A stretch of DNA of 11,846 nt from a virus (IMGVR_UViG_2579779084_000004:1-11846), one strand, 5' to 3'; numbered from the stretch's first letter, positions 1,953 through 11,229 are shown. The notes: generated by a model not told the origin, from the sequence alone. A program made the numbers and translations.

Positions 1953-1983
1953 AGGAAAAAACAAAACCCGCCGAAGCGGGTTA
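1953..1983 (-). terminator. Rho-independent terminator (probable 3' end of the hok mRNA)
   Basis: Plus-strand aacccgc-cgaa-gcgggtt (1965-1982) is a 7-bp stem with tetraloop; on the minus strand it is followed by TTTGTTTTTTCC. Lies about 70 nt downstream of the hok stop. Confidence 0.55.
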
Positions 1984-2050
1984 AGTGCGGGTGCGTTGAG
2001 GATGCCTGACTCATCAGAGGTGGCGAGGGATTTCTCCCTCACCTGGTCTC

Positions 2051-2206
2051 TTACTCCTCAGGTTCGTAAGCTGTGAAGACAGCGACCTCCGTCTGGCCGG
2101 TTCGGATTCGTACCTCGCAGAGGTCTTTCCTCGTTACCAGTGCCGTCACTATGACGGTTAAACAGATGACGATCAGGGCGATTAACATCGCCTTTTGCTG
2201 CTTCAT
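2051..2206 (-). CDS. hok: Hok/Gef-family type I toxin (51 aa, HokD/RelF-like membrane peptide)
   Basis: ATG at 2206 gives MKQQKAMLIALIVICLTVIVTALVTRKDLCEVRIRTGQTEVAVFTAYEPEE, which I recognise as Hok family: single TM helix plus the conserved C-terminal TGQTEVAVF motif. Confidence 0.85.
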   Translation of the reverse strand: MKQQKAMLIALIVICLTVIVTALVTRKDLCEVRIRTGQTEVAVFTAYEPEE

Positions 2207-2263
2207 AGCCTGCTTCCCCTTGCCTTTCGGCACGTAAGAGGCTAACCTACATTTGTGAGACAT
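2051..2263 (-). CDS. mok: Mok-like in-frame leader reading frame (70 aa) overlapping hok
   Basis: ATG at 2263 with GAGG 8 nt upstream; the N-terminal extension MSHKCRLASYVPKGKGKQA- is in frame with hok, as in chromosomal mokC/hokC. Confidence 0.45.
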   Translation of the reverse strand: MSHKCRLASYVPKGKGKQAMKQQKAMLIALIVICLTVIVTALVTRKDLCEVRIRTGQTEVAVFTAYEPEE

Positions 2264-2330
2264 AGATTGGGCCTCAGATTAATGTTAAGCGTCTTGCAGG
2301 ACGCGTAATGTTAACTGGGGCTTTTCTCTA
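2230..2330 (+). ncRNA. sok: Sok-like antisense RNA region (boundaries approximate)
   Basis: Inferred from hok/sok architecture: antisense to the hok leader and mok initiation region. A plus-strand TTGCCT...TAACCT promoter-like pair lies near 2219-2247. No clean terminator identified, so ends are uncertain. Confidence 0.3.
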
Positions 2331-2375
2331 TCTGCCTTTTGGTGTTCATGCCTGAGACAGATAGCCTCAAGCACC

Positions 2376-2420
2376 CGCAGTTATTCTACTTAACTAAGAT
2401 TTCCCCGCAAACCGTTTTTG
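2376..2420 (-). promoter_or_regulatory. Probable hok mRNA promoter and 5' end
   Basis: Minus strand reads TTGCGG-16 nt-TAGAAT (-10 at 2383-2388). The predicted transcript start GGGUGCUUGAGGCUAUCUG... resembles the 5' end of R1 hok mRNA as I recall it. Confidence 0.35.
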
Positions 2421-9070: not shown

Positions 9071-9114
9071 ATTAGGCATAGCCTATTGACAAGTAATTAG
9101 GCATTTCCTATAGT
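9071..9114 (+). promoter_or_regulatory. PL-like early promoter with overlapping operators
   Basis: -35 TTGACA (9086-9091), 17-bp spacer, -10 TATAGT (9109-9114). Operator ATTAGGCATAGCCTATT (9071-9087) overlaps the -35; a second copy (9095-9111) overlaps the spacer/-10; a degenerate third lies near 9051-9067. Confidence 0.65.
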
Positions 9115-9852: not shown

Positions 9853-10260
9853 ATGGAATTTAAAGATTTACCAAAAGAAATCCAGATAATTGCTGCAACG
9901 ACACTCGGTGATAGTCTGCTGAAAATTGACCCGGCATACACCAAAAAAGAAACCATCGATAATATGGTTCGTAATGTGCGCAATGCTTTTTCAGGGCTAT
10001 ATGGTTCTGATAATCAAAAACAGGAAAACGATATTGATGAACGGGTAATTTCTGTTTGCCTGAATGGTCATGTTATTTCAGCAATCAGAACAGAAACGGC
10101 AACTGCTTTTGATTATCTCTGCATGATTCAGAGTCTTGCTGATGTTCTGTTGAAATCAAAAGATTTAGAAAACGATGCAAATTTACAGGGGCGCACAATA
10201 GCACATCCATATGCACATACTTTAGGCTCTGTGGATATCAAAGATCCCACAAATCTTTAA
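9853..10260 (+). CDS. Hypothetical protein (135 aa), AT-rich, no recognised family
   Basis: ATG at 9853 sits 2 nt after the ydfC-like stop with GAGG 6 nt upstream, so it is co-transcribed with the early operon. Composition is markedly more AT-rich than flanking genes. Confidence 0.55.
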   Translation: MEFKDLPKEIQIIAATTLGDSLLKIDPAYTKKETIDNMVRNVRNAFSGLYGSDNQKQENDIDERVISVCLNGHVISAIRTETATAFDYLCMIQSLADVLLKSKDLENDANLQGRTIAHPYAHTLGSVDIKDPTNL

Positions 10261-10471
10261 TGAAATAGTTAACGCGAATTGTACTTGCTCTTTCAGTTGC
10301 TTTCAGAATACGCGTTGAAACTGCTGGCGGTAATTTAGTATTCCATTTATTAAAATCATGCCCGGAAAAGTACTCTTCGAAAATACTTTTAACTGCAGAC
10401 TCGCCTATTGAAATGCTGCTTACCATGCGATTTTGATAAAGGCATTTAGCAATAAGAGTTGATTTTAACAT
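10238..10471 (-). CDS. Hypothetical protein (77 aa), convergent with and overlapping the 3' end of the 135-aa gene
   Basis: ATG at 10471 preceded by AGGAGGG at 4-nt spacing; AT-rich; 23-bp 3' overlap with the plus-strand gene. No family recognised. Confidence 0.45.
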   Translation of the reverse strand: MLKSTLIAKCLYQNRMVSSISIGESAVKSIFEEYFSGHDFNKWNTKLPPAVSTRILKATERASTIRVNYFIKDLWDL

Positions 10472-10794
10472 TCACCCTCCTGAGGGTTGGTAATTAAGGA
10501 GTTCTCCACGGGTGAGGTGGAGTGCGTGCGCCGGACACGGGTGAGCATCCGGCACTGACAGTTTACTGAAAGGATATATCCCTGAAAAGTCAGGGCATAA
10601 CACGAAAGCGTACGGCGAAGGCCTTCACCTATGAGGCTTGTCGTTAAATTTAATTCGACCGTACGCTTCCGGTTGTGGCAATCCGCGAAATGGCGCGGCG
10701 GTAAGTATGGCAGGGGTACTATTCTCCCTCCCCTGTGGAGCACCGGGTTGTCAGGTTGACCATACGCTTAAGTGACAACTCCGCTGCAACAACC

Positions 10795-10857
10795 CATGCT
10801 GATTACCTTTTGGCGGGTATCCGTTTTTTGTTTTCCCTTGTGATACCCGCCCTTTTT
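10795..10857 (+). ncRNA. dicF: DicF-like small RNA (divergent variant) with intrinsic terminator
   Basis: UUUGGCGGGUAUC...GAUACCCGCCCUUUUU forms a 10-bp stem (10812-10821 with 10842-10851) plus U5 tail, resembling the K-12 DicF 3' region as I recall it. Lies about 180 nt upstream of dicB, as in Qin. Confidence 0.5.
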
Positions 10858-11040
10858 AAAGTGAATTTTGTGATGCGGTGAATGCGGCTCAGCGCACGCG
10901 GAACAGTTAAAAAGGCCAGTTGACTTCCGTATTGGTTCTTATGGGTGGGTTCTCTGTATCCGGCGTTAATTGTTAACTGGTTAACGTCACCTGGAGGCAC
11001 CAGGCGCCGCATCACAAAATTCATTGTTGAGGACGCGATA

Positions 11041-11229
11041 ATGGAAACGTTATTACCAAACGTCAATACGTCTGAAGGTTGTTTTGAAATTGGTGTCAGA
11101 ATCAGTAACCCTGTATTTACTGAAGATGCCATTAATAAGAGAAAATACGAACGGGAGCTATTAAATAAAATATGCATTCTTTCAATGCTGGCCCGTTTAC
11201 GCCCGATGCAAAAAGGATACTGGCAATGA
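11041..11229 (+). CDS. dicB: DicB cell-division inhibitor (62 aa)
   Basis: ATG at 11041 with GAGGA SD; METLLPNVNTSEGCFEIGVRISNPVFTEDAINKRKYERELLNKICILSMLARLRPMQKGYWQ is near-identical to K-12 DicB as I recall it. Confidence 0.85.
   Translation: METLLPNVNTSEGCFEIGVRISNPVFTEDAINKRKYERELLNKICILSMLARLRPMQKGYWQ

Follow-up and report, generated by a model that had tools for sequence, protein, structure and literature searches.

A divergent allele of the DicF/KilS small RNA slot and an STnc100-like leader domain closed by a 21-bp helix upstream of dicB in an Escherichia coli prophage

DicF is a textbook prophage small RNA (sRNA); DicB and KilR, which inhibit division of the host, have known roles in defence against phages and in stress arrest. 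RNase III processing helices are likewise familiar from the λ N leader, from sib, from the T7 early mRNA sites and from the 16S/23S rRNA stalks; they are duplexes of about two turns placed in polycistronic transcripts, whose cleavage separates RNAs and resets the ends of their neighbours. In this study, we analysed the untranslated region that precedes dicB in a stretch of viral DNA of 11,846 nucleotides (IMGVR_UViG_2579779084_000004:1-11846). This whole stretch is hereafter called the window, and positions are counted from its first nucleotide. An earlier reading of the same DNA, hereafter the original prediction, had placed at 10795-11040 a divergent DicF-like sRNA, followed by a structured dicB leader with a perfect inverted repeat that might serve RNase III processing or translational control.

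DicF, KilS and STnc100/PasD have each been described already, and RNase III has long been known to process the transcript downstream of DicF, as related in papers that cite Faubladier 1990. Two 3′ ends are given for DicF (Rfam RF00039), from the Qin prophage of K-12: that of a terminated 53-nt species, and that of a 72-nt species which RNase III generates from the full-length dicBF transcript (PMC5069750 and PMC9438474, both with reference to Faubladier 1990). RNase III also makes the 5′ end of a 190-nt form of K-12 DicF (bioRxiv 10.1101/2023.04.14.536235). The 5′ seed of DicF is needed for xylR, and its 3′ region for ftsZ and pykA (PMC5069750). KilS (b4833) occupies the equivalent place upstream of kilR in the Rac prophage of K-12 (1,418,405-1,418,502). 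It was verified by northern blot and RIL-seq, in a paper which does not mention DicF (PMC8175672).

At the locus studied here, we found two modules lying side by side between the upstream spacer and dicB. One is a putative sRNA which, judged from its flanks and position, is an allele of DicF and KilS. The other is a leader RNA domain of the STnc100 type, closed by an unusually long helix, P1. The features of the region are the following, with the evidence for each in brackets.

10603-10671, plus strand: hairpin equivalent to the upstream RNase III site of K-12, arms 10603-10615 and 10659-10671 (homology).
10786-10857, plus strand: putative sRNA, window-type allele of the DicF/KilS slot (alignment, repeat search, fold).
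10860-10880, plus strand: 5′ strand of P1 (repeat search, fold, duplex energy).
10884-10899, plus strand: hairpin P2, GCGGC-UCAGC-GC(A)CGC, with a bulged A (fold, covariation).
10900-10961, plus strand: variable arm P3, whose length and sequence vary among copies (alignments).
10962-10988, plus strand: hairpin P4, GGCGUUAAUU / GGUUAACGUC, loop GUUAACU (fold, covariation).
10990-11004, plus strand: hairpin P5, CCUGG-AGGCA-CCAGG (fold; a U-A to G-C change).
11005-11025, plus strand: 3′ strand of P1 (repeat search, duplex energy).
11029-11043, plus strand: dicB ribosome-binding site, with Shine-Dalgarno sequence (SD) GAGGA at 11029-11033 and AUG at 11041-11043 (4 nt beyond the end of P1).
11041-11229, plus strand: dicB, a 62-aa cell-division inhibitor (annotated as WP_001507242.1, cell division inhibition protein DicB).

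The repeat search recovered the 17-bp inverted repeat of the original prediction, which had been described as perfect and as enclosing about 130 nt: its arms, 10862-10878 (TGAATTTTGTGATGCGG) and 11007-11023 (CCGCATCACAAAATTCA), are complementary at 17 of 17 positions, and 128 nt separate them. By chance, a region of 800 nt should contain such a perfect 17-mer about 2e-5 times (some 3e5 position pairs over 4^17). If G.U pairs are allowed, the repeat extends to the 21-bp RNA helix P1, formed by 10860-10880 (AGUGAAUUUUGUGAUGCGGUG) and 11005-11025 (CGCCGCAUCACAAAAUUCAUU), with a duplex energy of -31.7 kcal/mol and two wobbles (U10879.G11006 and G10861.U11024). P1 is a continuous duplex of about two helical turns, as expected of an RNase III substrate. 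It closes a multi-branch fold: the leader from 10857 to 11060 folds at -74.4 kcal/mol, vs -55.4 +/- 4.0 kcal/mol for 200 shuffles (z = -4.7).

Covariation was then measured against shuffled alignments. In a MAFFT alignment of 52 diverse members, scored for P1, P2 and P5, 86.7% of the cells were paired vs 74.2% in shuffles, and both-sided changes were present in 162 cells vs 72. The covariation score was 0.359 vs 0.145, none of 500 shuffles being as high, and slid-partner controls scored 0.04-0.17. Inner P1 pairs left free by the search pattern each take several pair types, one of them being G-C in 30 copies and A-U in 16. A second alignment was limited to 15 leader copies, from dicB, kil, tciA and Klebsiella. 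Here the full structure was 96.6% paired, and 10 pairs had both-sided changes, vs 2.9 +/- 1.3 in shuffles (0 of 500 reaching that number); six of the ten are in P1, its outer half included, and three in P4. P4 was counted in this second alignment only, its 5′ strand being shifted by two columns between subfamilies in the first.

Among the single hairpins, three of the five pairs of P2 change on both sides, between a GCGGC/GCACGC type and a CCCCC/GGAGGG type, and P4 has compensatory changes at three pairs in the K-12 Rac copy and the Klebsiella phage copy. The near-invariance of P5 in the broad set is partly obtained by construction, since the search pattern contained P5. We conclude that P1 exists and is conserved with covariation, and that it is long specifically in the leader copies.

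The Rfam model of STnc100 (RF02076) matched the leader at 10864-11018, with 28.5 bits for a cut-off of 47; E was 3e-4 when 701 nt were searched and 5e-3 for the whole window. The match spans positions 21-154 of the model, whose consensus structure includes the closing helix; the K-12 leader scored 34.4 bits. The window copy has the core helices of STnc100 (inner P1, P2, P5 and the junction motifs), P5 and the inner four P1 pairs being partly fixed by the search pattern. Like the STnc100/PasD RNAs of lambdoid prophages, it shows the core fold, the GGUGAAU motif, a P2 with a bulged A and the motif CACC-GG-AGGCA-CC-GGCACC, and covariation extends across the two groups. It differs from them in its sub-threshold score and in the absence of a terminator of its own: nothing matches the model from about 155 to 206, and the SD and dicB follow directly. 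It differs also in its position, in an early-left operon immediately before an open reading frame (ORF) rather than in a late region, and in the length of P1.

Phage genomes were searched for the leader element by sensitive blastn. In Rac-SA53, Shigella phage 75/02 Stx, phiSTEC1589, Evi and pPE4 it directly precedes kil/kilR; in P7 and D6 it lies upstream of tciA-tciB; and in a Klebsiella phage it is followed by a 40-aa ORF and then by a ydfD-like gene. These kil/kilR, tciA and Klebsiella leaders scored 31-44 bits on the STnc100 model. In SfV, the core is followed instead by a DicF-like terminator, which gives an sRNA form. A pattern scan of viral contigs returned about 100 distinct free-standing STnc100 copies (loci L099-L218), most of which have their own terminator about 45 nt downstream. 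The leader is an STnc100-like multi-helix RNA domain. It is structured, as the original prediction held, and it is not specific to dicB, since the same domain also precedes kil/kilR and tciA. P1 counts 21 contiguous bp in 40 of the 58 distinct leader copies; if one mismatch is tolerated, 48 of them reach 20 bp or more. In the free-standing copies, the median is 8 bp (range 3-11, n = 106). The two-turn helix is thus specific to copies that precede a gene.

Two of the leaders deserve mention on their own. In K-12, between KilS and kilR, whose annotated start is 1,418,229, lies an unannotated STnc100-like leader with compensatory changes in P4 (L221, NC_000913.3 1,418,230-1,418,404, minus strand); K-12 thus carries two such leaders, dicF-dicB and kilS-kilR. 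In Klebsiella phage Kp4865-4 (L094, 1378-1691), P1 counts about 15 pairs and two mismatches over 17 nt, and the leader sequence differs from that of E. coli. The ORF that follows, 40 aa long and unannotated (MKDFARVPTGNQATRLNWFEVRLRQLCYLLAQKGNPEAEA), precedes the ydfD-like ORF and may encode another toxic or division-inhibiting peptide.

We next located the reported RNase III ends of K-12 on this structure. In MG1655, DicF is 1,649,382-1,649,434, and the 19 additional nt end at ...AAAGUGAAUUUUGU|GAUG. The 72-nt end, taken from the papers that cite Faubladier 1990, corresponds to U454|G455 of the K-12 locus (L220), 12 nt into the 21-nt 5′ strand of P1. The sequence around this cut, AAAGUGAAUUUUGUGAUG, is identical in the window. 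By homology, RNase III would cut the window transcript between 10871 and 10872. The partner cut would fall between 11015 and 11016, assuming the 2-nt 3′ overhang that PMC6212723 describes as the usual stagger. Between the two predicted cuts lie two pairs, one G-C and one U-A, in agreement with the in vivo rule stated in the same paper.

The K-12 leader also figures in an RNase III screen (Gordon 2017, PMC5371410 Table S1), where site 1,649,470 has 26 reads in the rnc mutant and none in either wild-type replicate. This screen is coverage-based and yields a long list, in which neighbouring sites within 400 bp are merged; it agrees with the RNase III model, though weakly, its counts being low. 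On the 5′ side of the slot, the hairpin at 10603-10671 is formed by a 13-nt inverted repeat, 92% complementary; the 5′ end of the K-12 190-nt species falls in the 3′ arm of the equivalent hairpin. The kilR-sieB site of Gordon 2017 (1,418,510) is 8 nt upstream of the KilS 5′ end, and belongs to the homologous upstream hairpin, not to P1.

Homology gives good support to the proposal that RNase III processes the transcript at this repeat: the 72-nt DicF end reported for K-12 falls inside the 5′ arm of P1. P1 would share with the familiar processing helices a duplex of about two turns in a polycistronic transcript, at which cleavage separates RNAs and resets the ends of neighbours. It differs from them in being long-range, and in closing a conserved multi-helix domain.

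Upstream of the leader, the alignment with K-12 gives near-perfect identity on both sides of a replaced core, and this core is, in K-12, the DicF gene. The base of the hairpin and its flanks are conserved, and the 5′ part and loop of the DicF segment differ, as had been suspected. In the window, the segment starts with a variable 5′ part (about 10786-10811, CAACAACCCAUGCUGAUUACCUUUU), continues with a stem of 10 pairs out of 10 (GGCGGGTATC, 10812-10821, with GATACCCGCC, 10842-10851) and ends with C and U5 (10853-10857). The hairpin, which has a U-rich loop, folds at -20 kcal/mol (z = -3.9). A promoter/terminator scan reported only a weaker sub-hairpin, 10812-10825, the main one being beyond its loop limit.

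The segment thus has the location of DicF, between the ydfC-side spacer and dicB (by alignment, anchored slot extraction and annotation), and, like DicF, an intrinsic-terminator 3′ end with hairpin and U-tract. It also shares with DicF the GGCGG...CCGCC terminator base and the flanking RNase III elements. Unlike DicF, it lacks the CUCCG anti-SD of the loop, and its stem is a stronger, 10-bp helix. The DicF 5′ seed UUUCUGGUGAC is absent, both in the K-12 alignment and in the slot comparison, apparently through a loss of about 11 nt: K-12 UUUCUGGUGACGUUU is replaced by ...GAUUACCUUUU, so that the single-stranded seed used on xylR and manX is missing. The 3′ region needed for ftsZ and pykA is not conserved either.

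With KilS, the window shares the GGCGG...CCGCC terminator followed by the leader domain and a division inhibitor (kilR in Rac), as well as the homologous upstream hairpin. The 5′ sequence and loop of KilS, an RNA of 98 nt, are unrelated.

The Rfam DicF model gave no match in the window at its gathering cut-off (48 bits), nor at E<=10 in segments of 701 nt or 91 nt, vs 76.7 bits for the K-12 control. The original prediction thus does not pass the comparison with Rfam DicF that it had itself proposed as a check. What stands is a positional homologue of DicF, by slot, flanks, terminator base and U-tract, and not a member of the DicF model. From sequence, the window sRNA is thus a positional allele of DicF (Qin) and KilS (Rac), and a changed target set is likely.

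The variability of the slot was examined at 87 loci retrieved through DicB relatives, the slot being defined as the segment between two conserved anchors. Among them, 18 distinct slot sequences were found, in which two 5′ types are joined to several hairpins. One 5′ type, the canonical one, is UCAAUUUUCUGGUGACGUUU; the other, that of the window, CCAUG(C/U)UGAUUACCUUUU, looks like the canonical type shortened by about 11 nt. Every hairpin opens with GGCGG and closes with CCGCC-U5, and the inner stems vary by complementary changes. The window-type 5′ segment, CAACAACCCAUG(C/U)UGAUUACCUUUU, is unchanged across three hairpin types. On the DicF model, phage Evi scored 76.4 bits (a canonical DicF, located upstream of kil), Rac-SA53 41.1 and phiSTEC1589 35.6, vs no match for the window, whose allele appears from sequence as the most divergent of the slot variants so scored. 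Of 5,426 complete E. coli genomes, 132 carry this allele, in most cases with 95-99% identity, and no noncoding RNA annotation covers it among the matches listed from these genomes.

Slot allele, leader and inhibitor gene assort independently: canonical DicF goes with kil in Evi, the window type with kil in another phage (L096), and the window type with dicB in the window. Natural rearrangements are also seen at module borders. In L096 (1150-1290), a phage labelled Actinobacillus with E. coli-like sequence, the terminator half and the start of the 5′ arm are partially duplicated in tandem. L067 (about 2380-2503) keeps the 3′ arm and dicB, and has lost the 5′ arm and all that lies upstream of P4. 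Finally, the CCAUG conserved in the window-type 5′ segment opens an ORF of 15 codons, MLITFWRVSVFCFPL, which ends inside the terminator stem (10796-10843, plus strand); a sub-allele with another loop retains a 14-codon version, MLITFWRVSVLFFP, despite an indel. This ORF has no SD and its frame runs to variable ends in other alleles, so that it is probably fortuitous.

At the other border, the SD and AUG of dicB are both outside P1. The predicted probability that the SD is unpaired is 0.18-0.58 in uncut contexts vs 0.68-0.76 in the predicted RNase III product, a modest change, and it varies with the flanks folded; the AUG is mostly paired in all folded contexts. A small hairpin with a GNRA loop, GAUAAUG-GAAA-CGUUAUU (11037-11054, plus strand), contains this AUG. 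It is found in K-12, and not in the kil and tciA leaders. In addition, an in-frame ORF that opens with a GTG (10945-11040, plus strand) adds 32 codons on the 5′ side of dicB.

The window matches the chromosome of E. coli ATCC 43886 (NZ_CP024256.1) at 100% identity, within a lambdoid prophage adjoining potC, and it contains the early-left operon of this prophage. In that genome, dicB, ydfB and ydfC are annotated. From its promoter, the operon runs through ydfA-like, ydfB and ydfC genes, two extra ORFs and the untranslated spacer to dicB, which is followed on its 3′ side by a ydfD-like gene, an exonuclease gene, xis and int. About 560 nt before dicB (10485-11040) are devoid of any convincing ORF. 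Two features of this setting complete the list given above.

9086-9114: near-consensus operon promoter, TTGACA-17-TATAGT.
10485-10795, plus strand: conserved, highly structured, untranslated spacer on the 5′ side of the sRNA slot (K-12 alignment and fold).

In a pairwise alignment, this spacer matches the ydfC-dicF spacer of K-12 nearly base for base, and it is also homologous to the Rac region upstream of KilS. The fold of 10485-10858 has z = -4.5 vs shuffles, so that the spacer is as conserved and as structured as the leader. Compared to K-12, two ORFs, both hypothetical, are inserted between ydfC and the spacer (9853-10260, plus strand, 135 aa; 10238-10471, minus strand, 77 aa); phage Evi has an ORF pair of the same lengths and arrangement (L098, 202-609, 408 nt, plus strand, and 587-820, 234 nt, minus strand). 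Elsewhere in the window, a full-length sok antitoxin RNA is present at 2201-2376 (minus strand; Rfam 120.1 bits vs a cut-off of 59), adjoining the annotated type I toxin gene hokD of the same prophage (L001, 3990-4145). Just downstream of hok/sok, a weak match to the Hfq-binding RNA isrK (1961-2042, minus strand; 24 bits vs a cut-off of 50, E = 0.09) is probably due to chance or to a distant relative.

We consider it probable that the region works as two modules, a slot sRNA and an STnc100-like domain whose closing helix P1 is the RNase III helix of the operon. The sRNA module, an allelic "seed cassette", would end at the intrinsic terminator (stem 10812-10851, U5 to 10857), and its product may act as an Hfq-type base-pairing sRNA on targets other than those of K-12 DicF. 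Transcripts that read through would fold into the five-helix domain closed by P1, and RNase III would cut them at about 10871|10872, as homology suggests, and at about 11015|11016, as the usual stagger predicts. Cleavage would separate the slot sRNA, with a 14-nt 3′ extension, from the dicB message, and would excise a core, about 144 nt long, in which 9 bp of P1 remain as the closing helix. The dicB mRNA would be left with a short, unstructured leader of 25 nt and a 5′ monophosphate.

Several points weigh against this reading. In 40 close dicB leaders, no both-sided change was seen: differences were mostly G.U wobbles, in numbers equal to those of shuffles, so that the covariation comes from more distant copies. 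The structure submitted to the covariation analysis was taken from the minimum-energy fold of the window itself, and some of the distant copies were retrieved with a pattern that fixed P5 and the inner four P1 pairs. As for RNase III, the K-12 cut position is taken here from papers citing Faubladier 1990, and whether that work assigned it to the long-range helix is uncertain; site 1,649,470 of Gordon 2017 is in P2, not in P1, in a table of low coverage with many weak sites. On the sRNA side, the terminator loop is large, 15-20 nt, which makes termination efficiency and the yield of terminated sRNA uncertain. The sole basis for different targets is the loss of the known pairing sequences, the pairing tests having no discriminating power. 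Computed cofold binding to ftsZ was -15.1 kcal/mol for K-12 DicF and -1.4 kcal/mol for the window allele, in a calculation where the validated K-12 pair was indistinguishable from shuffled controls, and neither full-length duplexes nor duplexes in 18-nt windows separated this pair from shuffled sequences any better.

Other explanations have to be weighed for each module. The slot hairpin 10812-10857 could be a terminator or attenuator only, from which no functional sRNA arises; the missing Rfam DicF signal, the deleted seed and the unusually large loop all fit this. We find it somewhat unlikely, given that the 5′ segment stays unchanged across three hairpin types, that the neighbouring slot alleles DicF and KilS are verified Hfq-associated sRNAs, and that the allele persists in 132 genomes, at mostly 95-99% identity. 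For the leader, the core (about 10872-11015) could itself be a functional trans-acting RNA of the STnc100/PasD class, P1 being only an excision stem, as are the rRNA operon stalks. The extent of its match to the STnc100 model, the covariation of its helices, the 9 bp of P1 left after the predicted cut, close to the 8-bp median of free-standing copies, and the sRNA form of SfV, with the same core and its own DicF-like terminator, are all in keeping with such a role. STnc100 and PasD are moreover reported to be expressed, PasD as an Hfq-bound sRNA (PMC5331693; bioRxiv 10.64898/2026.05.13.724894). We nevertheless hold this to be unlikely, as the score stays below the Rfam cut-off and the absence of reads from the K-12 leader in both wild-type replicates, vs 26 in the rnc mutant, suggests degradation, at very low coverage.

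We regard as quite unlikely that the leader is a structural shield acting in cis, either against Rho loading or by setting the read-through into the toxic gene, with RNase III cleavage incidental. The whole spacer is indeed strongly structured, the element always occurs in long untranslated stretches before toxic genes, and kilR, which has the same leader, is limited by NusG/Rho-dependent termination (PMC10798246). A shield would leave unexplained, however, why P1 is lengthened to two turns in leader copies only, and why a reported RNase III-dependent end falls inside it. Repression of dicB translation by P1 and the leader, through occlusion of the ribosome-binding site, seems improbable to us. 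P1 does end 4 nt before the SD, the SD is predicted to be more open in the cut product than in uncut RNA, and the AUG sits in a small hairpin. But SD and AUG are outside P1, the predicted accessibilities swing with the flanks included, and the AUG hairpin is not conserved in kil or tciA leaders. Finally, a perfect 17-mer repeat could act as DNA (protein site, cruciform or recombination site), or could reflect coding in the ORF 10945-11229, which extends dicB upstream in frame. This is hardly credible: the variants found in nature are mostly G.U wobbles, which only a plus-strand RNA tolerates; copies of the kil type show compensatory changes and a bulged A; and the genes that follow the domain are unrelated, with an AUG 53 or 58 nt away and hence in different reading frames.

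Three elements of this work were not found in the searched literature, although the 1990/1994 Bouche papers may cover part of this: DicF and KilS as alleles of one slot which has further, unannotated alleles; the spacer as an STnc100-like domain common to the dicB, kil and tciA leaders; and the lengthening of its closing helix to about 21 bp at the reported RNase III cut. The position of DicF is thus an allelic slot, with a seed that is exchanged from one prophage to another. At least one allele of this slot, present in about 2% of complete E. coli genomes, escapes annotation based on Rfam, so that the regulatory repertoire of these prophages is under-counted. The link to STnc100/PasD joins two literatures that do not cite each other.

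A bolder proposal, which we think unlikely, is that the spacer before the phage division inhibitors dicB, kil/kilR and tciA is a three-product unit, giving a hypervariable seed-cassette sRNA (DicF, KilS or the window allele), an STnc100-class RNA of about 144 nt, excised by RNase III and with its own function, and a toxin mRNA with a short leader. If so, the STnc100 fold would be a mobile domain, present in late regions as a free-standing sRNA and in early ones as an RNA which RNase III frees from within an operon, and the window allele would turn regulation away from ftsZ, towards other targets in the host. These results leave the general picture of sRNA and RNase III biology unchanged, and mostly extend known biology rather than overturn it. 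One conserved domain with a two-turn closing helix, found before dicB, kilR and tciA, gives the RNase III processing long reported on the 3′ side of DicF a concrete structural basis, and provides a single testable model for the handling of read-through into several toxic genes.

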